A stretch of 64,000 nucleotides of DNA from Treponema brennaborense. GTDB lineage: Bacteria > Spirochaetota > Spirochaetia > Treponematales > Treponemataceae. Below, one piece after another: positions 873 through 44,199 of this stretch; positions within the stretch are counted from its first letter, which is position 1, and each line of letters begins with the position of its first letter. The stretch is taken from assembly GCA_023666275.1 (NCBI GenBank), contig JAMPCJ010000006.1:17976-81975 (forward strand). The letters are read 5' to 3'. Below the pieces are notes generated by a model, which was not told where the DNA came from, searched no databases, and saw only the letters and a list, made by a program, of their open reading frames with translations. The translations under genes and the position numbers were made by a program.

Positions 873-1793
873 ATGTCTCATCTTGATTTCTTCAGGAAGC
901 AAGCAAAAAATTTCCTTAAAGACTGGCAGACTCAGACAAAAACCGTGGGAAGCGATGGGAGCATTTCGTACAGTTACGATTGGAAATTTTACGATGTGGG
1001 CGATCTGTTCTTTTATTATGAATTTGATGATGCGGACGAGCAGGACATTATGCTTGCGCGGGCGCAGCATGTAATTGCGAAAATGGCAGGATTCAAAAAA
1101 TGGGACGACTTAATTCACGCCACAGATACAGAACAGACTCTTGCGGAATTGCTTCTCCGCAGGTTCAAGGATGCCGGTGACATTCATGACTGGGAAGAAA
1201 AACTGATGTTTTCGGGCGCGGCGCAGTACGGAGCGGAAGCGGTGCTCGACTATGCCCGGCAGTATTACGAACTTGGCGATGCAAAAAAAATCGTCAATTT
1301 TTCAGCGGATAAAATCGTCATATTACAAGGGAAGCCGAGGAGCGCTGCGCTTCGTCAGTTTGACAGTGAACACAATCTTTCAGGAAGCCTGCGGACGGAT
1401 TCCGTGGTATTCTGCACGCATTGCAAAAAATCATTTGATTTCAAAAAATCAAAAGTCATACAGGACAACAACAGGCACCTCACTATGGTTGTCTGCAAAA
1501 ATTATCCGTCCTGCCGAGGCACGTATCTCGATTACAAAGTCCTGACACCGACAATATTATACGGTGCGGCACGAATAGCGGAATTGGAACGAGGCATAGA
1601 AGTATTCCCGGACCTGGCGATGAACAAAAAAGTGCATTGCATCCACTGCGGCAGAGAATATTTGTATCAAGAGGCGAATACCGTGATTTTTCCCGACGAC
1701 GCCGAGCCGTACATACTGTGCAAGCATTACCCCGAATGCGACGGCAGCTTGATTGACATGATGCCGGCTGAAAAAGCAGGAGAGGAGAAATGA
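873..1793 (+). CDS. protein with an unknown N-terminal domain and two topoisomerase-type C4 zinc ribbons
   Basis: Two C-x2-C...C-(K/K)(N/H)YP-(S/E)-C motifs typical of zf-C4_Topoisom. Its stop overlaps the start of the next gene (ATGA). Confidence 0.6.
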   Translation: MSHLDFFRKQAKNFLKDWQTQTKTVGSDGSISYSYDWKFYDVGDLFFYYEFDDADEQDIMLARAQHVIAKMAGFKKWDDLIHATDTEQTLAELLLRRFKDAGDIHDWEEKLMFSGAAQYGAEAVLDYARQYYELGDAKKIVNFSADKIVILQGKPRSAALRQFDSEHNLSGSLRTDSVVFCTHCKKSFDFKKSKVIQDNNRHLTMVVCKNYPSCRGTYLDYKVLTPTILYGAARIAELERGIEVFPDLAMNKKVHCIHCGREYLYQEANTVIFPDDAEPYILCKHYPECDGSLIDMMPAEKAGEEK

Positions 1794-2668
1794 CGGCAAA
1801 ACATTATATTCTTCAGGCAGTCAATCACGTGGGCGCGTCTGTCTATATTGACGACGTACCAAACGGCAAAAAATGCGGATGCTTTTGTGCTGAATGCCGC
1901 GGTGCGCTCATTGCAAAGCAGGGTAGTGTAAGAGCGCATCACTTTGCGCATATAAGCGGGAATGACAGCATAAAATGTAGCCAGACGGCTCTGCATCTTT
2001 TGGCAAAAAAAATCATCGCGGAAGAAAAACGAATTCCCGCATTTGTGGATGACAGCATATCATTTGTCGCCGTTGATTCTGTTGAGCAGGAAAAAAATCT
2101 GGGCGACATAAAGCCCGATTTGTACGCTGAATACAACGGACAACCGACTGCCGTTGAAATTTTTGTATCCCATGCAGTTGACGATGAAAAGTTTGCCAAG
2201 ATTCAAAATCATCAGCTGACGACATTTGAAATCAATTTGTCGGAACTGATTTTCGAAACAAAAGAAGAGGTGAAACAGGCAATATATGACATCAAAAATA
2301 TCCGTCCGATATATGATGAAAGAATAGTTAATGCATATTTAGTTCAGAAAAAACGGATTCTTGTAGAGCAAGGAATTCTGAAACCAATAAACAATGATAT
2401 TGTTCAGCAATGTCATATGTGCGGAACGATAATAAACGGTCGGTTTGCAAAATGGCATAATGTGCGGGAATCCTTCTGTAAAAATTGCTTTTTCGGCTGT
2501 TATTCGGAAGACAGGAAAGGCGTTTATTGTATAGGTCATACGAATGGACAAATCCCGATATGGTTTCTACAAGCGAATATAAATGAAAATCGTTTCATGT
2601 CGCTTGCAGAAACGCAAGAAAAGTTAAATTCTTTTAAGAGAGAAATCAATAGATTTGTGGTACGATAA
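1790..2668 (+). CDS. CoiA-like (competence protein CoiA family) predicted nuclease
   Basis: N-terminal C-x2-C...HFAH motif of the CoiA family. A KPD...EIF...K segment is compatible with a PD-(D/E)xK core. There is an extra C-terminal CxxC...CxxC. It is translationally coupled to the upstream gene. Confidence 0.55.
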   Translation: MTAKHYILQAVNHVGASVYIDDVPNGKKCGCFCAECRGALIAKQGSVRAHHFAHISGNDSIKCSQTALHLLAKKIIAEEKRIPAFVDDSISFVAVDSVEQEKNLGDIKPDLYAEYNGQPTAVEIFVSHAVDDEKFAKIQNHQLTTFEINLSELIFETKEEVKQAIYDIKNIRPIYDERIVNAYLVQKKRILVEQGILKPINNDIVQQCHMCGTIINGRFAKWHNVRESFCKNCFFGCYSEDRKGVYCIGHTNGQIPIWFLQANINENRFMSLAETQEKLNSFKREINRFVVR

Positions 2669-2687
2669 TCATAAAGGACTTCCGTAT

Positions 2688-4319
2688 ATGAAGAAAATAT
2701 TTTTTGCAGGCTTCGTGCTGTTTTTAACACACTTGTGTTTTGCGATTCCCAATATGAAATTGTATGAGAATGCAGAATTTTTGTATCAAATCTCAGACAA
2801 CTTTATATATGACGAAAACGGTGATCTTGTTTTTGAAATACGGGGCAATGAATTGTATTGCGAGAATGAGTATGCCGGAACTATCATTGAAGATGATGAT
2901 ATCCTGTCGATGGATTTTTATTTTGAGAGTGAGGAGAACAGAGCGTATCTCGAATCCAGCAAGAAAACGGGCTTTCTTCTCATACTGCGTTTGACTGAAG
3001 AAGAAAAATGTTTTGTTTCGGAATATGACGAAAAGACAGGACTTAAAAAGAAAAGATCATGTTATGCCGACGGGCAGCTTGATTCTTATGGTTTGTATGA
3101 ATATGAAAACGGCAAAATAGCAAAAATCTCGTATTATCATGCCGATGATTCTTCCGACGGATACTACCGTTTTGTATACGACAAAAGGACGGGCTGCAAA
3201 ATCAGTGAATCGGAATTCGACGCGGATAATCACCTTGTTCAGACAATTGAATATGATTTCGCAACCGAAAAACGGACGCGGAAACTGAATTATAATGACG
3301 ACGGTTCTGTAAAAGCAAAAACAGTATATGACAAGACTTCGGGAAATGCCGCAGAGCGATTTGTCTATGGAGCAAATGCAAAAAAGCCGACGAAGTGGAC
3401 GTTCATTCCGTTTGATGATGACAGAAACTATGCATTAAACAAAGACTTTTACTTAAATGCGGATTTCTGCCGTTACGGCGAACTTAAGCGGTATTCTGAA
3501 GATTCAAAAACAGAACCGATAGAATGGAACGACCTTTATTCTGCGGTTGTGCGGAAATATGATTTCAACGAACGAGTTGCCGGATACAGCTATATTGAAA
3601 ACTTGATACGAGCACGGTATCTTACCGAATATCCGTTTACGCTGTGCAGCAGCAATTCGAATCTTTATTACTGCTTTGCCGCGACTGATGACGATAAAAT
3701 CGATCTGTCTTCTTGCTATGAAATCAAGCTGATAGAAAAGCCGAGAAATTATACTGCGATGAACAAATCCGGAAGAGGAAGCGGTCCGTTCGGATTTGAC
3801 ATTGGCATGTCGTATGGCGAAATTAAAGAGGTGTGCGGCGGCAGTGAGCCGGAACACATTGCTGACGACCGCTATTATGTAAAGCCGAAAAAAGCGCATC
3901 CGCTGTTTGAAAAATACATCGTCTGGATAAGCGATTCCGTCGGGCTTTATTATGTAAAGGGTATTTCACGCGATATATCGGCATCCGACTACGGAACGGA
4001 AGCAAAACGGCAGTTCAGCAATCTGCTTGCCGTTCTTGAAAAAAAATACGGCAGATTCAGCCTGACTGATACTATAGCGCCTGATTATTATTGGAAAGAC
4101 GAAAAACATTGGATGCAGGCGTTGAAAGACGGAGCTCGAACATATAGGGCGAAGTGGAGCGTAACAAAAGAAAACTACGAAAACTTTAACGGGCTTTGCG
4201 AAATCATGTTCGGTATTAACAGCGCAAACAAGTATTCGGCTTCTGAGGCATATATCTGGATTGAGTATGAATTTTTGAATTACGGCGACGCAAAGGAAGC
4301 GTTAAATGATGTGCTGTAA
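2688..4319 (+). CDS. secreted or lipoprotein-like hypothetical protein (543 aa)
   Basis: N-terminal signal peptide MKKIFFAGFVLFLTHLCFA. Tyr/Asp-rich with no recognisable domain. Confidence 0.5.
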   Translation: MKKIFFAGFVLFLTHLCFAIPNMKLYENAEFLYQISDNFIYDENGDLVFEIRGNELYCENEYAGTIIEDDDILSMDFYFESEENRAYLESSKKTGFLLILRLTEEEKCFVSEYDEKTGLKKKRSCYADGQLDSYGLYEYENGKIAKISYYHADDSSDGYYRFVYDKRTGCKISESEFDADNHLVQTIEYDFATEKRTRKLNYNDDGSVKAKTVYDKTSGNAAERFVYGANAKKPTKWTFIPFDDDRNYALNKDFYLNADFCRYGELKRYSEDSKTEPIEWNDLYSAVVRKYDFNERVAGYSYIENLIRARYLTEYPFTLCSSNSNLYYCFAATDDDKIDLSSCYEIKLIEKPRNYTAMNKSGRGSGPFGFDIGMSYGEIKEVCGGSEPEHIADDRYYVKPKKAHPLFEKYIVWISDSVGLYYVKGISRDISASDYGTEAKRQFSNLLAVLEKKYGRFSLTDTIAPDYYWKDEKHWMQALKDGARTYRAKWSVTKENYENFNGLCEIMFGINSANKYSASEAYIWIEYEFLNYGDAKEALNDVL

Positions 4320-4349
4320 TGCAGGCACTGCATGACGAAAGCGATGCGA

Positions 4350-4388
4350 AAAAAAAAGTGCCGAAAATTCAATTCCTAATTTCGGCAT
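4350..4388 (-). terminator. rho-independent terminator at the distal end of the minus-strand cassette array
   Basis: Hairpin tgccgaaaatt..aatttcggca followed on the minus strand by a T9 run. It lies 3' of the GNAT gene that ends at 4469. Confidence 0.6.
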
Positions 4389-4455
4389 AAATATATGTAA
4401 TGTATTAAAATCGTTTGCGGAGAACCAGCAAGTTAAAGCTGCGCGGTGTGCCGGC

Positions 4456-4474
4456 AATGAATTATAATTTATCG
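4456..4474. repeat. cassette-boundary motif copy (gaattataatttatcg) overlapping the GNAT stop
   Basis: Matches the consensus RAATTRYAATTTA. The stop codon TAA is embedded in it. Confidence 0.5.
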
Positions 4475-4972
4475 CAGCAGCGCATACAGTTTCATGTCTG
4501 CAATTTTGCCGTTCTTTATCGCATTGTTTTTGAGCAAACCTTCAAGTTGAAAACCGGCTTTTTCCAGTACACGGCAGGACGCGATATTCGCTGCAAACGG
4601 TTCCGCATAGATTCGAATAATATCGCTGTCTGCAAAAATATACTCGCAGGTTTGTCTGACAATTTCGGTCATAATTCCTTTCCCCCAATATTCCTCTGCA
4701 ATGTAATAGCCGATTTCTGCGGTCAGCCGGTGAATATTTTCCTGACGGGAAACGCTGATGCTGCCGATTGCTTTGTTGTCTGCCGTAACGGCAAATGCAA
4801 ATATTTGGTTTTGATCGGCTGAAAGCATGGCAGTAATGTAATTCGCAGCGTCCTCTTCGGTATAGGGGAAAGGCAAACCGTCCCGAAGATTATTCTGCAC
4901 GTTTATATTCGAAAGTGCAGCCGCCAAATCTTTGGCGTCGGATAATTCCCATTTTCTTATTTTGCAAGTCAT
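4469..4972 (-). CDS. GNAT family N-acetyltransferase (RimJ/RimL-like)
   Basis: Acetyl-CoA binding motif region (Q/R-x-x-G-x-G/A: EYWGKGIMTE), 167 aa. The boundary motif overlaps its stop codon. Confidence 0.75.
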   Translation of the reverse strand: MTCKIRKWELSDAKDLAAALSNINVQNNLRDGLPFPYTEEDAANYITAMLSADQNQIFAFAVTADNKAIGSISVSRQENIHRLTAEIGYYIAEEYWGKGIMTEIVRQTCEYIFADSDIIRIYAEPFAANIASCRVLEKAGFQLEGLLKNNAIKNGKIADMKLYALLR

Positions 4973-4978
4973 AATATT

Positions 4979-4998
4979 CCGCTGAATTATAATTTATA
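4979..4998. repeat. cassette-boundary motif copy
   Basis: ccgctgaattataatttata between the genes 4469..4972 and 5004..5417. Confidence 0.55.
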
Positions 4999-5003
4999 GT
5001 TCT

Positions 5004-5417
5004 TTATAATTCAATCCAAGCCGTTTTTAAGTCCTTGTAAACTCTGCATTTTTGTGCCGTAAATTTTAACACGCAATAATCGGGGTCGGTTTTTCCTTTT
5101 TTATAAAACATAGTATCGCCCATGCGCCAAATCTCGTCTTTAATGCTTTGGTCTATCAATACCTGCATTGTTCCCACAAGCATAACGCCCGTATAACTGA
5201 ACCACCCGCGCTTATAAAAATAAATACACGCTTTTTCATTCGCGTTATATTGCGAAACCCTCATAGAAGAAGTGTTTGTGGAAAAATAAAAATCGTTGCC
5301 GTCGATTTTTCGCGGCGCAAGCATTGCCTTTGTGTTAGGAAAATCGTTTTCGTCAACCGACGAAATCATAGCCGTTTTCTGTTTTTTTATAAATTCAAAA
5401 ACCCGTTCTTTTGTCAT
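5004..5417 (-). CDS. pyridoxamine 5'-phosphate oxidase-like (general stress protein 26 family) FMN-binding protein
   Basis: PNPOx-like split-barrel pattern. The start is chosen at MTKERV, placing GAGG 7 nt upstream. The listed upstream extension is a translation of the boundary motif. Confidence 0.6.
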   Translation of the reverse strand: MTKERVFEFIKKQKTAMISSVDENDFPNTKAMLAPRKIDGNDFYFSTNTSSMRVSQYNANEKACIYFYKRGWFSYTGVMLVGTMQVLIDQSIKDEIWRMGDTMFYKKGKTDPDYCVLKFTAQKCRVYKDLKTAWIEL

Positions 5418-5425
5418 TAAATCAT

Positions 5426-5445
5426 CCTCGTTAAATTGTAATTTA
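5426..5445. repeat. cassette-boundary motif copy (core 20-mer cctcgttaaattgtaattta)
   Basis: Its last three bases are the complement of the TAA stop of 5443..5805. The GAGG RBS of the next gene lies inside it. Confidence 0.65.
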
Positions 5446-5805
5446 ATTACACAATTTTGTAATTGCTTCTTCCTTTGTCGAAACGAAGAAAATATCCCTG
5501 CCTTTATTGCTTTCATAAATGAAATCTTTTAGAGGTTTACTTGTATATTTTGTAAAGCCGCCATAAATTGCAATTCTTCCGCCGTAGTTAATAAATTTTT
5601 GCAAAATTGCTCCGGCAAGCCCCGTACTTAAAATGAAAAAATCTCCTATAATCAAGTTTTTGTCAATTATAATATTTTTTGTTCCGGCACTGTATTTTGC
5701 GTCCATTAGCAAATCCAAAGCGGATTGTTCGTCATAAATAACCTGTTTATCGCTATCTACAACCGCACAAACAACGCCGTTTTTATTTAAAATTTCAAAA
5801 TTCAT
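5443..5805 (-). CDS. DUF4180-family small protein
   Basis: 121-aa ORF with start at MNFEILN after a GAGG RBS. A frameshifted paralog lies at 9095..9459. Confidence 0.5.
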   Translation of the reverse strand: MNFEILNKNGVVCAVVDSDKQVIYDEQSALDLLMDAKYSAGTKNIIIDKNLIIGDFFILSTGLAGAILQKFINYGGRIAIYGGFTKYTSKPLKDFIYESNKGRDIFFVSTKEEAITKLCN

Positions 5806-5810
5806 AATTA

Positions 5811-5830
5811 CCTCGTTAAATTGTAATTTA
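5811..5830. repeat. cassette-boundary motif copy (identical 20-mer)
   Basis: cctcgttaaattgtaattta, identical to the copy at 5426..5445. Confidence 0.65.
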
Positions 5831-6469
5831 CTTTCCAAATTTCGATATAAAACGCTCTATATTTTTGTCTTGCAATAGTTCAAAATTTTCTTCTATCGTT
5901 TCGATAGGCATATCCCACCATTTCAGATTAAGCAACCGTTCAACTGTTTTATCGTTAAAACGCTTTTTTATAACTCTTGCGGGATTGCCTACGGCAATAG
6001 AATACGGCGGAATATCTTTTGCAACAACGGCGTTTGCACCGATGATGCAGCCGTCGCCCACTTTAACACCCGGCAAAAAAGTTACGTTTTGTCCTATCCA
6101 AACGTCGCTGCCTATAATCGTATCACCCTTGTACGGAATAATATCGTTGGGAATAGTCGGTCTGTCTTTTATAAAAATGCCGAACGGAAACGCCGAAATT
6201 CCGTCCATAGGATGATTTGCACCGTTCATAATAAATTCGACGCCCTTTGCGATGCTGCAAAACTTTCCGATAATAAGCCTGTCGCCCAAATGCGGATAGA
6301 AATGGGTAACGCGGCTTTCAAAATCTTCGCCGCCCGAATAAGCGTCGTCATAATAGGTATAATCGCCGACGATAATATTCGGATTTGTTATCACGTTTTT
6401 AATGTAGCATAGAGAAGGAATTTTTGGCTGCGGATGGATTGCGTCTTTATTCTTGAATAATAATTCCAT
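5828..6469 (-). CDS. xenobiotic acetyltransferase (Vat/CatB-like hexapeptide-repeat; streptogramin A acetyltransferase-like)
   Basis: Left-handed beta-helix hexapeptide repeats and the XAT-family pattern (HPMDGISAFPF...IGSDVWIGQNVTFLPGVKVGDGCIIGANAVV). Confidence 0.75.
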   Translation of the reverse strand: MELLFKNKDAIHPQPKIPSLCYIKNVITNPNIIVGDYTYYDDAYSGGEDFESRVTHFYPHLGDRLIIGKFCSIAKGVEFIMNGANHPMDGISAFPFGIFIKDRPTIPNDIIPYKGDTIIGSDVWIGQNVTFLPGVKVGDGCIIGANAVVAKDIPPYSIAVGNPARVIKKRFNDKTVERLLNLKWWDMPIETIEENFELLQDKNIERFISKFGK

Positions 6470-6477
6470 TTGTAATT

Positions 6478-6497
6478 CCTCGTTGAATTGCAATTTA
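6478..6497. repeat. cassette-boundary motif copy (cctcgttgaattgcaattta)
   Basis: 2 mismatches to the core. Contains the perfect palindrome AATTGCAATT. Confidence 0.6.
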
Positions 6498-7256
6498 TTT
6501 GTAGTTTTCGTATTTCGATTGTTCGAAAACTTTTTTTCCGATTACCGTAATTGCTTTTTGCGGACAGTGCGAAAAGCAGCGATAGCACATTGTGCATTTC
6601 CCGTTAAAATCAATACCGCTGTCTGTAAGGTTGATATTATTCATCGGACAAAGACTTGCGCATAAGCCGCAGTGTACGCATTCAGTGTTGTCAACTTTTG
6701 TTTTTGTATAATACGTTTTCGTTTTATTATAAAAATAAAGCCGCTGACCGAATAACCCCGCCAAATGATAAAAAAAGTTTAAGCCTTCTTTCGGATAACG
6801 ATTGTTTTTGATTTCGGCTATCGCTTTATCGATTTTCGCATCGGCATTTACTGCGATTTGTTTGTTGACTTGCAGCGGTCGTTTCAGTGCTTTTACGTCG
6901 CCGATACAATCGGGCATTTTAATATGCAAGCCGCCTAAAACTTTCGCGCCGTATTTTTTGAAAAGCCGTGCGGAAAGTCCCGCGCCGTCGCCGCTGAATA
7001 GTCCCATTGTGGCAGCGATAAAAATTTTTTTGCCGCAAAATACGTTTGCGTTATCGACAATAAAATCCCGCACGATTTTAGGCAAATTCGAGTATTGAAC
7101 GGGATAGCCGAAAATTATCGTTTCGCTGTTTTTGATAGCGTTTATCGTATCTTTATTTTCCAAAGCGTACACGGGCGCGTTTTCATGCAAGCCTTTTACA
7201 AGTCTTTCGACGCAATGTTTTGTATTGCCCGTGCCGCTGAAATATACGCCTGTCAT
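6495..7256 (-). CDS. flavodoxin-like protein with a C-terminal 4Fe-4S ferredoxin domain (EFR1-type)
   Basis: N-terminal YFSGTGNT flavodoxin signature. C-terminal CxxCxxCxxxCP ...CxxCxxCxxxCP. Confidence 0.7.
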   Translation of the reverse strand: MTGVYFSGTGNTKHCVERLVKGLHENAPVYALENKDTINAIKNSETIIFGYPVQYSNLPKIVRDFIVDNANVFCGKKIFIAATMGLFSGDGAGLSARLFKKYGAKVLGGLHIKMPDCIGDVKALKRPLQVNKQIAVNADAKIDKAIAEIKNNRYPKEGLNFFYHLAGLFGQRLYFYNKTKTYYTKTKVDNTECVHCGLCASLCPMNNINLTDSGIDFNGKCTMCYRCFSHCPQKAITVIGKKVFEQSKYENYK

Positions 7257-7267
7257 TTTTAAGTTCA

Positions 7268-7287
7268 CCCCGATAAATTGTAATTTA
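7268..7287. repeat. cassette-boundary motif copy (ccccgataaattgtaattta)
   Basis: Variant with GGGG in place of GAGG as the RBS. Confidence 0.55.
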
Positions 7288-7304
7288 TTGCAAATCAAAC
7301 ATAA

Positions 7305-7895
7305 TCAGACTTTCGGCATAGGTGCATTGTAGAAGCCGAGTTTATGAAAATCATACCAACCTTTTATTTGTTCTTCGCTTGCTGCCGATAATGCACGCAA
7401 TACTTCCTGCGCAAATTCAAGTGCCGCCGTTCCGTTTGCCGTGATAACATTATTGTCCGACACTGCTTGTCTGTGTATAAAGCCTTGTTCATTTGTATAA
7501 GACGGATATTGTTTTAATTCGTTCAAATCGTTAGCCGTATGTTTTGCGCCGTTCAAAACTCCGATAGAGCCTAAAAATCTGCAAGCATCGCAAATCGCAC
7601 CCAGCACTTTGCCGCTCTTAATACATGCGTCGATAAGCGGCTTAACTTGCATAGCATTCTCGTTATGCCACGACATACCGCCGATAAGTATTGCGGCATC
7701 GTAATCGGACGGCAGGGTAAGCAAGTCGTAATCGGGCAGGCATTTAACGCCGCCGATGGAAGTGACGGCGTTTTTTGTGAGCGATACGGTCTTATTTTCA
7801 AATTTGCTGCTGCCGAGCATATTAACAGCCGACGCTATATAAGCAAGTTCCCAATCTGCCCATTGTTCCAAGATAACATATAATATTTTTTTCAT
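7305..7895 (-). CDS. DJ-1/PfpI family protein
   Basis: Class I glutamine amidotransferase-like fold with the conserved Cys (AICDACRFLG). The start is chosen at MKKILYV because of AAGGAA spacing. Confidence 0.65.
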   Translation of the reverse strand: MKKILYVILEQWADWELAYIASAVNMLGSSKFENKTVSLTKNAVTSIGGVKCLPDYDLLTLPSDYDAAILIGGMSWHNENAMQVKPLIDACIKSGKVLGAICDACRFLGSIGVLNGAKHTANDLNELKQYPSYTNEQGFIHRQAVSDNNVITANGTAALEFAQEVLRALSAASEEQIKGWYDFHKLGFYNAPMPKV

Positions 7896-7914
7896 TGTTC
7901 TCATTTCCTTTGTT

Positions 7915-7934
7915 TCCGCTGAATTGTAATTAAG
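7915..7934. repeat. cassette-boundary motif copy (tccgctgaattgtaattaag)
   Basis: Variant shared with the 4979 copy (ccgctgaatt...). Confidence 0.5.
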
Positions 7935-7941
7935 GTTTGCC

Positions 7942-8574
7942 TTATACTTTCTTTATCGGATGGCGTATGACTGTCTTCAGTTTTTCTGCGGCGCATTTGC
8001 GCGGGTCGCTCAAATATATCTCGTGATGATAGCGGCTTTCGCTTATATCCAAATCATAGCCGTTCGCTTCCATATATTCGTGCATGAGTGCGACGGTTTT
8101 CGGTTCGTCATCGTAAGAGCCGACGTGCATGCATTGAACGCAGACGCCCTCGTCATACGTCAGATATTCCGCCTTCGAAAAGTCCGTCTTTTTCTTTTTC
8201 GTCGCTTCCTGCACTGCCCAGTCAAAATCGGCTTTCGTTACGAAATCCGGCAAACGGATAAGCGATATGAAGTTGAAGCCGTCCTTGTTCGCGTAGTCGA
8301 CACTAGCCGATCCGTCCTGCCGCCAAAATCCTTCGAGCGGCGGCACGACATATTCGAAATATCCGTCGATTTTGTGCGCGCCTTTATAGCTCATCTTTAT
8401 CGTAAAGGCAATGCCGTACAAAAGAGCGATTGAGTTTTTATATTCTCCGTTTTCGTCGTTCGGATTGCCCTTGCCGCGTACTGCTATGTAATTCATTTTC
8501 GGCACGGTTACAATCGACGGCATACTTTTCGGCATATAAAATTCTTTGTATTCTTTCTTGTAATCAAATGCCAT
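7942..8574 (-). CDS. GyrI-like small-molecule-binding domain protein
   Basis: About 210 aa with a GyrI-like/AraC effector-binding pattern. The start is chosen at MAFDYKK, which has an AAGGAA RBS. The listed start is a TTG. Confidence 0.5.
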   Translation of the reverse strand: MAFDYKKEYKEFYMPKSMPSIVTVPKMNYIAVRGKGNPNDENGEYKNSIALLYGIAFTIKMSYKGAHKIDGYFEYVVPPLEGFWRQDGSASVDYANKDGFNFISLIRLPDFVTKADFDWAVQEATKKKKTDFSKAEYLTYDEGVCVQCMHVGSYDDEPKTVALMHEYMEANGYDLDISESRYHHEIYLSDPRKCAAEKLKTVIRHPIKKV

Positions 8575-8617
8575 ACATATTCCTTTTTTATTTTTCAACA
8601 GCGTGGATTTTTAAGCA

Positions 8618-9070
8618 TTACTTCACGGCTATGTACAAATAACAATGCGCCTTGCCGTCTTTTGTGTATGCTGCGGGCACGGTGCTTTCGTAGTCAGTCG
8701 TAAACGCACGTTTGAGTTTGCCGCTTGCGGTAAGTTCCCAAACTTTCGACCAGGCTTTATTTGCGCAGTCCGCGATTGTTTCTCCGCTTTCGTCTATTTT
8801 GATGTATTCGCCGCGCGCGGCCGCGCTTTCCATTTTCGCAAAGAAGTCGGCAGTTACAGTCATTACCGACAAATTGTACTTGCCCTTTTCGTCGCTCTCG
8901 TAGTCACTGTAAGCCGAAATCGGCGACAGTCCTTTGACGGGTACGCCGTTTTCGATGAAGTCAAGCGGAACATTGCCTCGCATGATGTCCGCCCAAAGTT
9001 CATTGATTTTTGCCATTCCGCTTTCGGAATTGTCCGTGCGTATCGTAACGCTCTTGAATGAATATGACAT
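8618..9070 (-). CDS. hypothetical protein, possibly GyrI-like/effector-binding fold
   Basis: 150-aa ORF with start at MSYSFK after a GGAGAA RBS. The boundary motif is upstream. Confidence 0.4.
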   Translation of the reverse strand: MSYSFKSVTIRTDNSESGMAKINELWADIMRGNVPLDFIENGVPVKGLSPISAYSDYESDEKGKYNLSVMTVTADFFAKMESAAARGEYIKIDESGETIADCANKAWSKVWELTASGKLKRAFTTDYESTVPAAYTKDGKAHCYLYIAVK

Positions 9071-9079
9071 ATTATTTCT

Positions 9080-9099
9080 CCGATACATTATAATTTATT
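9080..9099. repeat. cassette-boundary motif copy (ccgatacattataatttatt)
   Basis: More diverged variant between 8618..9070 and the DUF4180 pseudogene. Confidence 0.45.
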
Positions 9100-9459
9100 T
9101 ACGCATCTTTGCAATTGCTTCTTTTTTTGCCGGCACAAAGAATATATCTTTGCCTTTATTGCTTACATATATGAAATCTTTTAGCGGTTTGCTTGTATAT
9201 TTTGTAAAATCACCGCAAATGGCTATTCTTCCGCCATAGTTAATAAATTTTTGCAAAATTGCATCTGCAAGTCCCGTACTCAAAATGAAAAAAATTTTCT
9301 ATAAACCAAACTTTTATCTATTATAATGTTTTTTGTTCCTGCATTGTATTTTGCATTCATTAACAAATCCAAAGCGGATTGTTCGTTATAACAAACTCGT
9401 TTGTTGCTGCCTGCAACCGCATAAGTAATTCCGTCATTGCTTGAAATTTCAAAATCCAT
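9095..9459 (-). pseudogene. frameshifted paralog of the DUF4180 gene at 5443..5805
   Basis: Clear nucleotide similarity to 5443..5805 along its whole length, but only the C-terminal 62 codons remain in frame. Indels are visible around 9290-9330. Confidence 0.6.
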
Positions 9460-9463
9460 CTTA

Positions 9464-9483
9464 CCCCGATAAAATGTAAATTA
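9464..9483. repeat. cassette-boundary motif copy (ccccgataaaatgtaaatta)
   Basis: Lies between the pseudogene and the GNAT gene at 9487..9927. Confidence 0.5.
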
Positions 9484-9486
9484 TCT

Positions 9487-9927
9487 TTAAGTATCAATTC
9501 TTTCAAACTCGACAATGGTTTTATTCCGGTAGATAATATCTTCTCTTTTAGTAAAGCCCATTTTTTCCCAAAATTCGTTTCCGCTTATATTTTTGCCGAA
9601 CACGACCAGCGCAACTTTATTTATTCCTAAACGCTCAACGGCAGAAAGCGCAGTTTCAACCAAAGCTTTTGCAATACCTTGTTTTCTGTAATCGGGGTGT
9701 ACGGCGGTATGATATATATAACCTCTGCGTCCGTCGGTGCCGACCATTATTGCACCGACAATTCTTCCGGCAATCAAGGAAACAAAACACGTTTCGGGAT
9801 TGCGTTCAAGAAATTTCGCTATTCCGTTTTCTGTATCGTCCAAACTGTTTAAGCCCATACCCGCACATGACAACCAAAGTGAATATACATCGTTGTAATC
9901 TAAAATTGTCATTTTTCTGATTTGCAT
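9487..9927 (-). CDS. GNAT family N-acetyltransferase
   Basis: 146 aa with a GNAT acetyl-CoA binding region (RKQGIAKALVE). A GAGG RBS is upstream. Confidence 0.7.
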   Translation of the reverse strand: MQIRKMTILDYNDVYSLWLSCAGMGLNSLDDTENGIAKFLERNPETCFVSLIAGRIVGAIMVGTDGRRGYIYHTAVHPDYRKQGIAKALVETALSAVERLGINKVALVVFGKNISGNEFWEKMGFTKREDIIYRNKTIVEFERIDT

Positions 9928-10008
9928 ATATTTATACCTCTTACAACATTGTTTATCGCTCTGTTTGAGTGAATATTCGCCGTCATCTTTTCCGAGTTCC
10001 GCAGAAAG

Positions 10009-10254
10009 TTATATTTTGTGTGCAGTAATTATCGTATACGTATATGAATTGATTGTAATTTTTATATCGTCAATTTCGCAATACCAATTTTTGCCTTGCT
10101 TATAAATGCAGCACGCATTATGCAGAATTTTTTGTTTGCAGTATTCAACAGGGTCGTTTGTTTCGATCTTCAAATTTTTCCTGATTCTGTCTGCACCCAT
10201 TTCCGTTGTATGTACCGATGATATGTTGCTGAGCAAAATGCATTTATCTTCCAT
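10009..10254 (-). CDS. DUF3781-family small protein
   Basis: 81-aa ORF with a conserved ...GKNWY...IITAHKI pattern. It is preceded by the boundary motif and an AAGGA RBS. Confidence 0.5.
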   Translation of the reverse strand: MEDKCILLSNISSVHTTEMGADRIRKNLKIETNDPVEYCKQKILHNACCIYKQGKNWYCEIDDIKITINSYTYTIITAHKI

Positions 10255-10261
10255 AAGGTAA

Positions 10262-10281
10262 TCCTTTATAAATTGCTGTTT
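10262..10281. repeat. cassette-boundary motif copy (cctttataaattgctgttta)
   Basis: Diverged variant upstream of the DUF3781 gene. The embedded TAA is the stop of 10280..10768. Confidence 0.4.
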
Positions 10282-10768
10282 ATTGTTCTGCGGCAGTGTC
10301 CGATGCGTTTTTATAGCTTATTGAAATATGAGCGGCTGCAAACATAACCGCAAAAACAATCAGCGGTATATTTGCGGTTATTATGCCGCTGAACAGAAAG
10401 ATGCATGACGGCAGAATAGATAGCAGCAGGGCTTTTGCTTTGCTGTTTTTATTCCAAAAAACTGCCCAAAGCAAAAGATACGCAAAACACAAACAGCCGT
10501 TTACGGATAAATAAACGGCAATCGCATAATCAAAGCGAAAATCAAAATATGTATGCGGAATATTGAATATCATCAAAACAAAACAGGCGTATCTGCCTAT
10601 TTGTTCCATTATGACTGCTGTTTTGTTGTCGTAACTGACGGCAGTATCGCTTTTATGTTTTACGGCATAAACAATATTCGGCATCATGAGGATTGCCATT
10701 ATGATAAGTCCGTAATAATTGAACCGATTCATAAAATTATTGTAGCACGAGCACTTTTCTTTTTCCAT
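10280..10768 (-). CDS. integral membrane protein, function unknown
   Basis: Four or five hydrophobic helices. The start is uncertain: 10768, 10732 or 10834. Confidence 0.4.
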   Translation of the reverse strand: MEKEKCSCYNNFMNRFNYYGLIIMAILMMPNIVYAVKHKSDTAVSYDNKTAVIMEQIGRYACFVLMIFNIPHTYFDFRFDYAIAVYLSVNGCLCFAYLLLWAVFWNKNSKAKALLLSILPSCIFLFSGIITANIPLIVFAVMFAAAHISISYKNASDTAAEQ

Positions 10769-10834
10769 ATCATAACAACGCCGCAGCAGCCGCTTTGCGC
10801 TGCATAAAAGAATATGTTCTGTATTTTTCCGCAT

Positions 10835-10936
10835 TGCGGATTTTCCTGCATTTGCATTATATTGTAAGCGATAAAAAATAAAACCGGCAAATGCAGCGCT
10901 GCGGATTGCCGAAAAAAATATTCGGGAAAAATTATT
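10835..10936. promoter_or_regulatory. divergent intergenic region with the inverted repeat ctgcatttgc / gcaaatgcag
   Basis: 10-bp perfect inverted repeat separated by about 37 nt, plus a direct repeat ttgcggatt x2, between the divergent genes 10280..10768 (-) and 10937..11410 (+). Confidence 0.35.
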
Positions 10937-11410
10937 ATGAACAGAAAAGACAGAGAAATAACAGATCCTGCGGAAATCATTGATTTGCTTAACAGATGCG
11001 ATACGCTGCGGCTCGGTTTAATAAACGGCGATTTCCCGTACATTGTGCCTGTTTCATTCGGGCTGGACGTACAAAACGAAAAGATTGCGGTTTATTTTCA
11101 TTGTGCAAAAAAGGGACTGAAAGTCGACTGCATCAATAAAAATCAAAACGTGTGCATTGAGGGCGACATTTTTTATAAAGTCGAACACGTGAAAATGGGA
11201 ATTACTGCCCGCTACGAAAGCGTTGTCGGTTTCGGAACAGTATGCGAATCCTCGGACGAAGAAAAAATGTACGGTTTGACTAAAATTCTGGAACACTACA
11301 ATCAGCTTGATTATCCGCTGGATAACTGCAAGGGACTTCCGTTTGCTGCCGTATATAAAATAGAACTGCATAGTTTAACCGGAAAAAGAAACCTGCCGAA
11401 TCAATATTGA
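10937..11410 (+). CDS. pyridoxamine 5'-phosphate oxidase family protein, NimA-like (5-nitroimidazole reductase-like)
   Basis: N-terminal ...ITD..EI..LL..C...RLG...G.PYIVPVSF......YFHCAKKG.K...I..N pattern typical of Nim/PNPOx split-barrel proteins. Confidence 0.55.
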   Translation: MNRKDREITDPAEIIDLLNRCDTLRLGLINGDFPYIVPVSFGLDVQNEKIAVYFHCAKKGLKVDCINKNQNVCIEGDIFYKVEHVKMGITARYESVVGFGTVCESSDEEKMYGLTKILEHYNQLDYPLDNCKGLPFAAVYKIELHSLTGKRNLPNQY

Positions 11411-11583
11411 GCCGGTCAAAAGTGCTTTTGCGCGGATTGTCTTTATCCGTCTGCGCTTGACGCGTCTGTATTGCGGAATTTTTTTTATCGGTTTTTCGCA
11501 AAAACAGTTGACAATACGAAATATTTTGCGTAATATAATTGTGTACAATTTAATTTTGTACTACCAAATAAACGGAGGCTGTT

Positions 11584-12057
11584 ATGGCTGTTTATGATTT
11601 TACCGTGAAAGATGCACAAGGATCCGACGTTAATTTGTCGGAGTATAAAGGCAAAGTGCTTTTAATTGTCAATACCGCTACGGGCTGCGGATTTACGCCG
11701 CAGTATGACGAATTGCAGGATTTGTACGAGGAATTGCAGGCGAGCGGTTTTGAGATACTTGATTTTCCCTGCAACCAATTCGGTCATCAGGCACCGGGAA
11801 CGGAAGAAGAAATCGTGGATTTCTGCCAGTCGCGGTACGGCGTTACTTTCAGGCAGTTCGCAAAAATCGATGTAAACGGCAAAAACGAATGTCCGCTGTA
11901 TACGTATTTGAAGTCGCAGAAAGGCGGCGTCATGGGCAGCGGAATAAAATGGAATTTCACAAAGTTTCTTATCGATCGCGAGGGCAGCGTCGTAAAACGA
12001 TATGCACCTGTCGTCAAGCCGGAAGATATCAAAAACGACATCAAGGAGCTGCTGTAA
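11584..12057 (+). CDS. glutathione peroxidase (Cys-type)
   Basis: GPx signatures (LIVNTATGCGFT with the catalytic Cys, FPCNQFG, WNFTKFL). Confidence 0.85.
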   Translation: MAVYDFTVKDAQGSDVNLSEYKGKVLLIVNTATGCGFTPQYDELQDLYEELQASGFEILDFPCNQFGHQAPGTEEEIVDFCQSRYGVTFRQFAKIDVNGKNECPLYTYLKSQKGGVMGSGIKWNFTKFLIDREGSVVKRYAPVVKPEDIKNDIKELL

Positions 12058-12314
12058 TGGAATATACGTATAAAACGAAAAATGTCTGCTCTGCGGAAAT
12101 TAAATTCAATATAGACGGAAACGTGATAACGAACATTCGATTTACCGGCGGCTGCAACGGCAATTTGAAAGCAATAGCGAAGCTGGTTGACGGCTGGACT
12201 GCCGAGCAAATTGCCGAAAAATTGTCGGGCAATACGTGCGGCAGACGTCCTACCTCCTGCGCCGACCAGCTGGCACTTGCCGTAACGGAAGCCTGCAATG
12301 TCTGCGCCGGTTGA
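12057..12314 (+). CDS. TSCPD-domain small protein
   Basis: 85 aa with a GGC...TSCADQLA motif. The ATG overlaps the gpx stop (TAATG). Confidence 0.55.
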   Translation: MEYTYKTKNVCSAEIKFNIDGNVITNIRFTGGCNGNLKAIAKLVDGWTAEQIAEKLSGNTCGRRPTSCADQLALAVTEACNVCAG

Positions 12315-12364
12315 TTCGTGCATTCGAATTTGATAAAATCGAAAAACAATATAAAAGAGGTTCT

Positions 12365-12796
12365 GTTATCAAACATAATAAATTTGCCGGCTTGCTGTTA
12401 AAGAATCAGCTTTGCTTTCCGCTGTATGCCGCCTCGAAAGAAATTGTAAGAAAATACCGTCCTTACCTCGATAAACTTGATCTGACTTATACGCAGTATA
12501 TAACCTTGATGGTTATGTGGGAAAAGAAAACAATAAGCGCAAAAGAATTGGGCGGCATTCTGTATTTGGATTCGGGGACGCTCACGCCTGTTCTGAAAAG
12601 CCTTGAAAGCAAAAGCCTGATCAAACGCACTCGCGGAACGGACGACGAACGCCTGCTGATAATAAGCATTACGGAGCAGGGCGAGGCGCTGAAAAATCAA
12701 GCTGCCGAAATTCCGCCGAACATCGCGAAGTGCGTAAATCTTGATGCAGCCGAAGCGGCGGAACTGTATCGGCTGCTGTACAAAATACTGCAGTAA
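12365..12796 (+). CDS. MarR-family transcriptional regulator, OhrR-like
   Basis: LKNQLCFPLYAASKEIVRKYRPYLDKLDLTYTQYITLMVMWE matches the OhrR N-terminal region including the sensing Cys. The exact start is uncertain, with no in-frame ATG near the RBS. Confidence 0.6.
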   Translation, partial: VIKHNKFAGLLLKNQLCFPLYAASKEIVRKYRPYLDKLDLTYTQYITLMVMWEKKTISAKELGGILYLDSGTLTPVLKSLESKSLIKRTRGTDDERLLIISITEQGEALKNQAAEIPPNIAKCVNLDAAEAAELYRLLYKILQ

Positions 12797-12845
12797 TTTT
12801 TCGAGGATATTCGCAAATCCGAAATCGGAAACGGAGAATAAAAAT

Positions 12846-13379
12846 ATGCATTATATAAGTCGCTGCGAATCTCCTGTCGGCGGTATAACGCTTGCGGCAA
12901 ACGGAAGCGAGCTTACGGGTCTTTGGTTCGACGGGCAGAAGTATTTCGCGGACAATCTTCCCGCTCAATATGAGGAAAAAGACCTGCCGATATTCGATCA
13001 GACGAGAAAGTGGCTCGGCATTTACTTTTCGGGCAAAGCTCCCGATTTTACGCCGCCGCTGTGTTTCGGCGGAATATCGCCGTTCAGAAAACGCGTGTGG
13101 GAAATAATGCTCGCCATTCCGTTCGGGCAGACTTCCACTTACGGAAAGATAGCAAAACAAATCGAAACGGAAACGGGCAGAAAAGCGTCTGCGCAGGCTG
13201 TCGGCGGCGCGGTGGGACACAATTCGATTTTGCTTGTTATTCCGTGCCACAGAGTTGTGGGGACAAACGGAAGTTTTACGGGATACGCCGGCGGAATCAA
13301 GCGGAAAATACAGCTGCTGAAAATGGAGGGCGCGGACATATCAAAGTTTACCGTTCCCGAAAAAGGCACGGCATTGTGA
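12846..13379 (+). CDS. ogt: methylated-DNA--protein-cysteine methyltransferase
   Basis: Active-site PCHRV motif (VIPCHRVV) and a C-terminal DNA-binding domain. Confidence 0.85.
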   Translation: MHYISRCESPVGGITLAANGSELTGLWFDGQKYFADNLPAQYEEKDLPIFDQTRKWLGIYFSGKAPDFTPPLCFGGISPFRKRVWEIMLAIPFGQTSTYGKIAKQIETETGRKASAQAVGGAVGHNSILLVIPCHRVVGTNGSFTGYAGGIKRKIQLLKMEGADISKFTVPEKGTAL

Positions 13380-13573
13380 ACCTTGGTTATGTGCAGGAAA
13401 GCGAAAAAAGCGGATCCCGTTTTTCTGCATTTGCGGTATAAAGCCGTTCAAAAGCGCATGTCTGCGCCGAAACCGTGCGCCCGCCGCCGTCTCATTGCAG
13501 CGGATTGCGTGTGGTACGGAAGTTTTCCGCGCGGCGGCGGTCGGCTGATTTCCGATTTTTGCGGGAGTTTTAC

Positions 13574-14011
13574 ATGGATTTAATCGTGCGGAAGTTCGGC
13601 GAGCTTTCGGCGGCGGAACTTTACGAAATACTCAGGGCGCGCTCCCAAGTCTTTCTCCTTGAACAGCGCATCGTATGCCAGGATCTGGACGGCGTTGACT
13701 ACCGCAGTCTCCATTGTTTTTTTATGGAAGAGAAAAAAGTTTCCGCATATTTGCGCGCGTTCTGCGATGACGAAGACTGTACCCGCGTGAGAATCGGGCG
13801 CGTTCTGACAGTTGTTCACGGAAAAGGAACGGGGCGCGCGCTTATGGAGCAAAGCCTCAAGGCGATACAGGAAAGACTTCCGTGCAAAACAATATGCCTT
13901 AACGCGCAAAAGTACGCTGTGCCGTTCTACGAACGCTTCGGATTTAAGATTGTATCCGGCGAATTTTTGGAAGAGGGAATCGTTCATGTCGCCATGGAAC
14001 TGCACTTGTAG
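13574..14011 (+). CDS. GNAT family N-acetyltransferase (ElaA-like)
   Basis: 145 aa with a GNAT motif (GKGTGRALMEQ). The start is at MDLIV. Confidence 0.65.
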   Translation: MDLIVRKFGELSAAELYEILRARSQVFLLEQRIVCQDLDGVDYRSLHCFFMEEKKVSAYLRAFCDDEDCTRVRIGRVLTVVHGKGTGRALMEQSLKAIQERLPCKTICLNAQKYAVPFYERFGFKIVSGEFLEEGIVHVAMELHL

Positions 14012-44045: not shown

Positions 44046-44199
44046 AGTGTAAGTTATTCCAATAGAGTATTATTTTATTACACTATTGGCTTGATGTTTT
44101 CGCAATAATCTAGTAGACTGTTGTTATTATTCGCTATTAGCGGATAAATCTATGTTTTTTATGCGAATAAATTTTTCCCGTTTTCAAAGGATTTATATA

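Follow-up and report, generated by a model that had tools for sequence, protein, structure and literature searches.

Short palindromic junction sites bound promoterless gene modules in a Treponema-like array, in gut Bacillota and in their phages: a candidate cassette-exchange system

Integrons and, more recently, dif modules are the known routes by which single accessory genes are collected at defined short sites. The integron site, attC, is an imperfect inverted repeat of 57–141 nt that folds into a bulged hairpin with R''/L'' and L'/R' boxes and conserved AAC...GTT triplets, the only sequence that attC sites have in common; a complete integron requires intI beside attI and the cassette promoter Pc, and clusters of attC sites lacking an integrase (CALINs) have no intI. 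The dif site spans 28 bp, with a 6-bp spacer between 11-bp arms for XerC and XerD, and resembles the chromosomal dif site of the host. In the dif modules of Acinetobacter, XerC/XerD recombine pdif sites that alternate in orientation, exchange is between sites of matching spacer, and a single module is replaced given such a match on both its left and its right (PMC13141974). Chromosomal integrons are known from the genus Treponema, with attC sites of at least 63 nt that read GTCTAAC...GTTAGGC in T. denticola (PMC3607928). Here we report an array of small genes separated by a short palindromic motif in 64,000 nt of DNA, henceforth the window, from an assembly labelled Treponema brennaborense (GCA_023666275.1, contig JAMPCJ010000006.1, positions 17,976–81,975 of the forward strand). 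The motif marks the boundaries of cassettes, and modules have been joined, lost and replaced at it in several lineages and types of replicon; by analogy, Acinetobacter dif modules and integrons seem to be its closest relatives in function.

The array occupies window positions 4455–10285 on the minus strand, where 11 co-oriented genes and one pseudogene (G1–G12, numbered by ascending position) are divided by 11 copies of the motif, two of them degenerate. Its cassettes are promoterless, co-oriented and functionally unrelated. On the coding strand the motif reads cgA-TAAA-YWNYAA-TTTA-wCGg, a 6-2-6 palindrome, as in the junction TAAATTACAATTTAACGAGG. Matches to RAATTRYAATTTA with at most one mismatch number 16 (both strands of the palindrome counted) against an expected 2.7 ± 2.1, and none of 100 shuffles reaches 16. 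All of them lie within 4458–9097, none occurs outside the array across the 64 kb, and a single copy is intragenic (5564–5576, inside G3). Clear copies are present at nine junctions, all on the minus strand: the terminal site after G1 (CGATAAATTATAATTCATTG, 4455..4474), which has no downstream gene and keeps its left arm and core intact while the right arm is not conserved, G2>G1 (CTATAAATTATAATTCAGCG, 4980..4999), G3>G2 (AATTAAATTACAATTTAACG, 5429..5448, its TAA being the G3 stop codon), G4>G3 (AAGTAAATTACAATTTAACG, 5814..5833), G5>G4 (AAATAAATTGCAATTCAACG, 6481..6500), G6>G5 (CAATAAATTACAATTTATCG, 7271..7290), G7>G6 (ACCTTAATTACAATTCAGCG, 7917..7936, left arm weak), G9>G8 (AAATAAATTATAATGTATCG, 9081..9100) and G10>G9 (AGATAATTTACATTTTATCG, 9467..9486, core degraded). 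Copies of a second flavour are found on the same strand at G12>G11, the first site of the array (CAATAAACAGCAATTTATAA, 10266..10285), which has the CAGYAA spacer of the promoter-proximal site in clostridial arrays, and, in a degenerate CAG-type form, at G11>G10 (CGATAAACAATGTTGTAAGA, 9939..9958); no copy was found at the G8>G7 junction. The remaining nine spacers are TTACAA, TTATAA, TTGCAA or degraded, and all share the same sense. The TAA of the motif is the stop codon of the upstream gene in six cases, and CGAGG, CGGGG or CGGAG at its right end leads into the Shine–Dalgarno sequence of the next gene.

An earlier sequence-only reading of this stretch, made without database searches, had described an integron-like array with one near-palindromic motif at ten boundaries and a GTTRRRY-like word within it. 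The organisation it recognised is real, with co-oriented, tightly packed and unrelated genes, uniform boundary repeats and a repeated cassette, and the motif is significant by the counts above. Its symmetry holds and extends further, out to CG...CG around a variable centre; the count has to be revised to nine clear and two second-flavour copies, and the GTTRRRY-like word turns up in only three junctions. Judging by the pseudogene G9, the degraded sites around G9–G11 and the absence of a site at G8>G7, the half of the array nearer the promoter seems to be decaying. At G2>G1 (4972–5016) the last codons of G2 (TTGAATTATAA) and the junction site (TTATAATTCA) form a 10-bp inverted repeat, seemingly part of an extra half-site in inverted orientation; no other junction folds clearly better than its shuffles (z = -2.2 and -2.5 for this one).

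Cassettes of the array are shared with Clostridia. Protein clusters drawn at 90% identity hold 114 members for Vat and 120 for DJ-1, mostly on clostridial contigs that also bear sporulation and germination genes. At the DNA level the DUF4180, Vat, DJ-1 and GyrI cassettes of the window are 80–86% identical to clostridial contigs, with homology running from site to site: G3 (DUF4180) is 82–86% identical to cassettes of the Firmicute contigs L011–L017 (comparative loci are given as L numbers), G4 (Vat) about 80% and G6 (DJ-1) 86% identical to clostridial cassettes, the homology of the latter beginning within the junction site, and G7 (GyrI) 83% identical to the first cassette of L042. The same cassettes occur with differing neighbours and in differing chromosomal places (L031/L038; L041, L042, L044, L061; L051–L060), and one clostridial species has arrays of one to four genes at several such places. 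Vat stands alone between gyrA and a P-type ATPase gene in one context and alone adjoining a GH2 gene in another, and an acyltransferase likewise stands alone; longer arrays read 252aa-DJ1-GNAT156, GyrI+DUF6194-DJ1-GNAT156 and 252aa-DJ1-GNAT146, with GyrI+DUF6194-DJ1-hydrolase in a sister species. Clostridial arrays open with a promoter followed by TACGATAAACAGTAATTTA, the first site lying directly downstream of the -10 box, and close with ACGATAAATTTCAATTTATC followed by a terminator, and their internal junctions are of either the TACGATAAACAGTAATTTA or the ACGATAAATTTCAATTTATC type.

Where such loci are aligned with one another, sequence identity collapses at the site. Between L031 and L038 it is 99.8% in Vat, 95% in the site, 65.7% in the terminator module and 46.6% thereafter; L041 and L044 are identical (100%) in DJ-1 and 48.5% identical beyond the site; L054 and L052 are identical (100%) in DUF4180 and 49.1% identical beyond it. 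The edge also runs in the other direction, L041 and L042 sharing 47.1% identity before the site and 97.5–100% after it. Every one of the approximately 15 breakpoints examined falls at the site and none within homologous genes. The site furthermore precedes a terminator with no following gene in the window, in L012, L031, L041 and L054 and on the Enterococcus faecium plasmid pAD21B-1.

Two features of the clostridial loci deserve separate mention. A unit of promoter module (~215 nt), cassettes and terminator module (~140 nt) is repeated at different chromosomal places (L038 5780–6800, L041 4930–7240, L042, L043, L044 and L061); it is edged by hairpins, ATTCCC-ATA-GGGAAT after TTAC/TTGC on the left and ATTCCC-TAT-GGGAAG on the right, and looks like a non-autonomous element of the insertion sequence type IS200/IS605, similar to palindrome-associated transposable elements (PATE-like), that carries the cassette platform. 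Neither plasmids nor viral contigs gave matches to the promoter and terminator modules. The 252-aa cassette of L041 has a 5' leader (5117–5175) in which the site is followed by GAGG, a four-codon mini-ORF (open reading frame; ATGATTTGTGATTAA) that may encode a leader peptide, and then the real ribosome-binding site (RBS).

The sites extend to further Firmicutes, to a plasmid and to phages. A third Firmicute lineage has one DUF4180 protein, identical in sequence, in ten distinct contexts with junctions of the form TAAATCGGGATTTATC, TAAATCGAAATTTGAC or ACAAATTCCAATTTATCGGG, together with a 20-nt mini-cassette between two sites. On the conjugative E. faecium plasmid pAD21B-1, DUF4180 is followed by TAAATTCCAGTTTGTCGAG; a scan of viral contigs for this flavour returned 53 matches, about 10–20 of which are estimated to arise by chance from the information content of the pattern. 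A family of gut phages on IMG/VR contigs (L084 1827–4200; relatives L078, L108, L097, L083, L112, L085 and L070) has a one- or two-gene slot directly 3' of the tail terminator, major tail and tail chaperone genes, edged by CCGATAAATCGGAATTT[AG] on one side and by [TC]AAATTCCAATTTATCGAG plus a terminator on the other, and the cargo of this slot varies from phage to phage (ThuA-like, NUDIX, DUF3784+NUDIX, AAA_18 kinase, UDG-like and unknown proteins). Scans of genomes and metagenomes for the exact 20-mer of the window gave mostly chance matches, only L002 and L004 being informative, and this flavour is therefore rare in public data. In the Oscillospiraceae metagenome-assembled genome (MAG) SIG650, an ORF-less and strongly self-complementary unit of ~290 nt is present at two loci (L009 5107–5400, L010 6264–6510), flanked by a TAAATTGYAATTTAACGAGG site on one side and a CCGATAAATCAAAATTTGA site on the other; both an ORF-less cassette and a miniature inverted-repeat transposable element (MITE) that uses these sites are possible identities.

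The anatomy of the site was derived from an alignment of 36 junctions that represent at least six lineages and were taken from the window, the plasmid, a contig of a sister MAG and no fewer than three Firmicute lineages. The consensus is c-g-A-TAAA-YWNYAA-TTTA-w-C-G-g with an invariant AAA/TTT frame. Positions 0–5 form six inner Watson–Crick pairs with positions 13–8 in 24–36 of the 36 sites, and the outer C-G...C-G pair is symmetric in about 40% of them, even though the left member lies within the last codons of the upstream gene. The centre is variable (AC, AT, GC, GT, TC, CC, GG and others). Because cassette-specific sequence stops directly before TAAA and starts directly after AATTTA, the crossover would lie within the 14-nt core and, in cases that allow a finer placement, at the dyad centre or to its left. 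No meaningful RNA hairpin is predicted at the site (0 to -3.8 kcal/mol), and G-U pairs are not in excess on the sense strand. By its anatomy the motif reads as a double-stranded DNA site bound by a dimer, and not as a folded attC, a repetitive extragenic palindromic (REP) element, an RNA signal or an RBS context.

Spacer flavours alternate along the arrays, CAGTAA with TTTCAA in the clostridial arrays and TCGGRA with TTCCAA in the third-lineage and phage loci, the latter two being near reverse complements, and replaced modules retain identical left and right spacers. The flavour is uniform within a genome and differs between genomes, and both CAGTAA-type sites of L061 share one A>G substitution in an arm; together these two observations point to concerted evolution of the sites within a genome.

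How might such modules be assembled and expressed? We propose that about nine to ten small promoterless modules in the window are read as a single operon that starts at a promoter upstream of G12 and stops at the terminator near 4350, each module being bounded by the ~20-bp quasi-palindrome cgA TAAA | YWNYAA | TTTA wCGg, with the sites serving as points of joining, loss and exchange. The sites would be short double-stranded recombination sites acted on by a recombinase encoded elsewhere, with Xer-type tyrosine recombinases as the likeliest candidates, and exchange would be preferred between sites with the same central spacer. Such spacer matching would account for both the two alternating flavours and the replacement of single modules. 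As the TAA of the site can serve as the upstream stop and the right arm leads into the next Shine–Dalgarno sequence, an inserted module could be expressed from the shared promoter, and in the window, cassettes lying between direct sites with identical spacers could be deleted or excised. We lean, without great firmness, towards the view that short arm-spacer-arm recombination sites delimit the promoterless modules. The wider proposition, an undescribed cassette-exchange system in which ~20-bp palindromic sites and a recombinase would carry single genes as promoterless modules from one chromosome, plasmid or phage of gut Bacillota to another, and over the phylum boundary into Treponema, as a functional analogue of integrons and dif modules, is offered tentatively, with doubt slightly outweighing belief. 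Among the options left by the sequence-only reading, a non-canonical cassette system with minimal recombination sites is the best fit; in the comparisons, breakpoints fall at the boundaries.

Several points weigh against reading the motif as a recombination site. No recombinase could be linked to the sites, either in the window or beside the clostridial arrays, and neither excised circles nor empty sites nor alternative junctions within one sample were seen. Adjacent sites have unlike central spacers; those of the window do not alternate as they do in the clostridial arrays, and the left arm is weak in most window sites, where coding sequence overlaps it. The identical core of 14–20 nt could serve phage annealing proteins with no dedicated enzyme at all. 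The comparative loci are all MAG or metagenome assemblies, in which misjoins at repeats are possible, albeit that the main contexts recur in several independent samples, and the 36-site alignment was curated by hand.

The strongest rival builds on the annealing argument and takes the motif for an expression linker, composed of a stop codon, an AU-rich spacer and a Shine–Dalgarno sequence, that acts as a short homology patch for shuffling by RecA or phage single-strand-annealing recombinases. The invariable position of the motif between stop codon and RBS, its occurrence in phages, the lack of an identified dedicated recombinase and a constant core of 14 nt between any two cassettes, within which the crossover is not resolvable further, all agree with it, and the promoter/stem-loop (PeSL) motifs of T4-type phages are a known case of repeats with a regulatory role through which modules are shuffled and mini-circles arise (PMC2839356). 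Against it, the site also stands before terminators with no gene following, and its dyad symmetry reaches into the upstream coding region; the variable centre leaves only 4–6 nt of uninterrupted identity on either side, on which homologous recombination would work poorly, the hairpin predicted for the site is marginal, promoter-like sites do not exceed chance, and the confinement of the breakpoints to the site, with none inside homologous genes, speaks against general homology. We consider this explanation rather unlikely. A pure translational-coupling element or operator, as entertained in the sequence-only reading, similarly leaves the sites before terminators, the dyad within coding sequence and the drop in identity at the site unexplained. 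Were the palindrome the binding site of a dimeric stress regulator (of the MarR, PerR/Fur or Xre type) controlling detoxification genes, with modularity incidental, its AT-richness and operator size, the redox- and xenobiotic-related gene content, the MarR-family gene 1.4 kb away (12236–12796) and the clostridial first site just downstream of the -10 box would fall into place; ten operators within one operon, including one after the last gene, are nevertheless without precedent known to us, the clostridial, plasmid and phage loci have no regulator as a constant neighbour, and the identity cliffs and the variable cargo slot of the phages would go unexplained, which renders an operator array very improbable.

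A canonical integron remnant, that is, a CALIN whose attC sites are shortened or overlap the coding ends, would suit the integron-like gene content and co-orientation, the standing of Treponema as a genus with chromosomal integrons (PMC3607928) and a weak match of G8 to Cass2, yet it is the explanation to which we give the least credence, and the integron identity is rejected. The gaps of 22–48 nt are too short for the Treponema attC sites of at least 63 nt (PMC3607928), and the junctions have no sequence similarity to T. denticola attC. Folding 90 nt on both strands at nine junctions, as the sequence-only reading had recommended for 80–120 nt, gave energies of -1.9 to -11.9 kcal/mol with z from -3.7 to +1.4 and no common bulged or imperfect hairpin, and the GTT/AAC triplet is present in a minority of the 36 sites. 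No Phage_integrase domain was detected with Pfam in the array genes, the neighbours up to 14 kb, the remaining ORFs of at least 300 aa in the 64 kb or four ORFs in or beyond the start flank, in keeping with the earlier statement that the window has no intI; a weak Zn_ribbon_recom match in the ORF at 873–1793 was discounted as zinc-ribbon similarity only. The same sites moreover occur in Firmicutes, in which we know of no report of an integron; literature searches found none.

Other identities were considered and set aside. REP elements and bacterial interspersed mosaic elements (BIMEs) are high-copy palindromes dispersed genome-wide after genes and forming stable stem-loops; the motif has no copies outside the array in 64 kb, and its hairpins reach at most -3.8 kcal/mol. 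A structural RNA or sense-strand hairpin is disfavoured by energies near zero and the lack of a G-U excess, and Rfam 15 returned only chance-level matches in window positions 4200–11200 and in the clostridial array of L041. The resemblance of the motif to a -10 box (TATAAT/TACAAT) had suggested an internal promoter; promoter-like sites are not above chance in number in the array region, and the real clostridial promoter lies upstream of the site. A serine-recombinase site of 9-2-9 layout is disfavoured, the central dinucleotides of neighbouring sites differing in a manner that would block serine-type exchange, and variable loops on conserved stems are the opposite of the Rep nick sites expected for HUH/IS200-type junctions.

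The individual genes, assigned to families by Pfam in agreement with the list of the sequence-only reading, all lie on the minus strand: G1, a GNAT acetyltransferase of 167 aa (4469–4972; Acetyltransf_3, E=8e-29); G2, a PNPOx-like protein of 137 aa (5004–5417; PNPOx_N, E=4.5e-16); G3, DUF4180, 120 aa (5443–5805); G4, a hexapeptide (Vat/CatB-like) acetyltransferase of 213 aa (5828–6469); G5, a flavodoxin and 4Fe-4S protein of 253 aa (6495–7256); G6, DJ-1/PfpI, 196–199 aa (7305–7904); and G7, a GyrI-like protein of 210 aa (7942–8574). G8 (150 aa, 8618–9070) has a weak Cass2/GyrI-like match (E=6e-5, 23.7 bits, below the cut-off of 27). Cass2 is an integron-associated effector-binding protein with a GyrI-like fold. 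As no junction site lies upstream of G7, G8 and G7 may constitute a single two-gene cassette. G9 (9095–9459) is a second DUF4180 gene, a frameshifted pseudogene with ORFs at 9095–9283 and 9280–9459, followed by G10, a GNAT acetyltransferase of 141–146 aa (9487–9927), G11, DUF3781, 81 aa (10009–10254), and G12, a membrane protein of 184 aa outside any Pfam family (10280–10834), which heads the transcription unit and may not be a cassette. Real genes between 4469 and 10834 are exclusively on the minus strand. The duplication of DUF4180 that had been noted earlier is real, 5429–5834 and 9081–9488 being 74–84% identical from motif to motif. The packing is tight, as claimed, with gaps of 22–48 nt in place of the 20–45 nt given, except for the 81 nt between G11 and G10.

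The array ends at an intrinsic terminator (4339..4377, minus strand), which was read by eye, the automatic scan being limited to loops of up to 8 nt; the terminator had been placed at 4350..4388, and its stem, GCCGAAA/TTTCGGC with a 13-nt loop, is actually at 4350–4376 with a T-run at 4339–4347. At the other end, the divergent intergenic region (10835..10936) holds a promoter-like TTGCCG-18-TACAAT on the minus strand (10890–10861), recognised by its match to the consensus only. Divergently from the array, 10937–14011 encodes a stress and repair run of a Pyridox_ox_2 PNPOx-like protein, glutathione peroxidase, TSCPD, MarR, MGMT and GNAT; its first two genes are still in low-GC DNA, and there is no junction motif between its genes.

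Coverage of the host genome comprised the 64 kb and a further 4.5 kb past the window start. Genes for BamA, TamB and MutS are present in the window, and since the nearest named homologues of its MutS and AroB (56–62% identity) are from Treponema and Spirochaetaceae, the host would be a divergent Treponema-like spirochete, as the sequence-only reading had assigned it. The window was matched to contig JAMPDY010000001.1 of the MAG GCA_023665405.1. Proteins of the window are identical in GCA_023665405.1 and two sister MAGs, for which the NCBI labels are Bacteroides sp., Prevotella sp. and Treponema brennaborense, and the motif-bearing contig L002 of the sister project carries the label Corallococcus sp.; taxonomic names given in this MAG project are unreliable. 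The GC content is 40% in the first 12 kb of the window (1–12 kb) versus 49–50% in the remainder, with single cassettes at 32–49%. In the complete genome of T. brennaborense and in one Spirochaetaceae MAG no array is present at the syntenic locus, where the order MutS-OmpH-BamA-TamB-Tmk-x-AroB is kept and aroB is directly followed by an aminotransferase and other core genes. The comparison of related genomes proposed by the sequence-only reading thus gave presence and absence here and reshuffled cassettes in the clostridial loci; judged by these genomes, the array is accessory and lineage-specific. As part of the best explanation, we think it somewhat probable that it sits in a horizontally acquired low-GC island.

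Converging on the array are genes for a DUF3268 zinc-finger protein, a protein with a CoiA-like N-terminal domain and a 554-aa protein without clear family (window 873–4319 and L001 15396–20363), beyond which lie an HTH_3 protein and McrBC; these genes probably form a defence island in the low-GC region of the array. A GmrSD-type restriction endonuclease gene (44152–45936) in its own patch of 35.6% GC makes up a second small island.

If the 20-bp junctions are true recombination sites, they would constitute a third cassette system beside those that have been described. It would move acetyltransferases, including a homologue of Vat-type streptogramin acetyltransferases, DJ-1, GyrI-like drug-binding proteins and other detoxification genes among the phages, plasmids and chromosomes of gut anaerobes and across phyla; it would offer a searchable reservoir of mobile resistance and stress genes and raise the question of the recombinase that acts on it. 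The short and portable stop-site-RBS junction could also find use in operon engineering. To our knowledge integrons have not been reported in Bacillota (Firmicutes), nor have integrons or dif modules in gut Firmicutes or their phages, and full-text literature searches turned up no account of junctions like these, nor of Firmicute cassette arrays.

Phage morons are autonomous promoter-gene-terminator units that do not have a defined, shared junction site. The slot of the gut phages resembles them in its position after the tail chaperone genes, with unrelated non-phage cargo and then a terminator, but differs in being bracketed by shared junction sites. PeSL cassettes of T4-type phages combine a promoter and a terminator stem-loop, have their own transcript each and recombine by homology (PMC2839356, PMC4122927). 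As with PeSL, a short conserved motif flanks small non-essential ORFs, marks the breakpoints of insertion, deletion and replacement and is found in phages; unlike PeSL, the site described here is neither promoter nor stable stem-loop, with no excess of promoters or terminators at the junctions, lies within operons, varies at its centre and has a range that takes in chromosomes, a plasmid and phages from other phyla.

With dif modules the arrays share small accessory modules, some of them ORF-less, and short arm-spacer-arm sites with variable spacers, each common to two adjacent modules; replaced modules retain their left and right spacers, and flavours alternate in the clostridial, third-lineage and phage loci. 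The inner arms CGATAA...TTATCG (...CG(T)ATAA / TTAT...) recall the XerC arm (ATTTCGTATAA / TTCGTATAA). In contrast to dif proper, the sites are ~20–22 bp long rather than 28 bp and nearly symmetric, with no XerD-type arm (TTATGTTAAAT) and with ATAA and TTAT 8 nt apart instead of 6. A single promoter serves the modules, which lack promoters of their own, share one orientation and are packed stop-to-RBS; their hosts are Bacillota, phages of these and a spirochete as opposed to the Rep_3 plasmids of Acinetobacter, the window sites do not alternate, and a role for Xer would be a matter of analogy. From integrons the arrays differ in the lack of a folded attC of 57–141 nt, of R''/L''/L'/R' boxes and of a conserved AAC/GTT, in that no intI was found, and in having short palindromes of a double-stranded type. 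They nonetheless resemble integrons in their promoterless, co-oriented single-gene cassettes of unrelated function under one upstream promoter, in boundary sites that are uniform per host, in the occurrence of ORF-less and pseudogene cassettes, in cassettes common to distant taxa and in a first site of distinct flavour that, like attI, lies beside the promoter.

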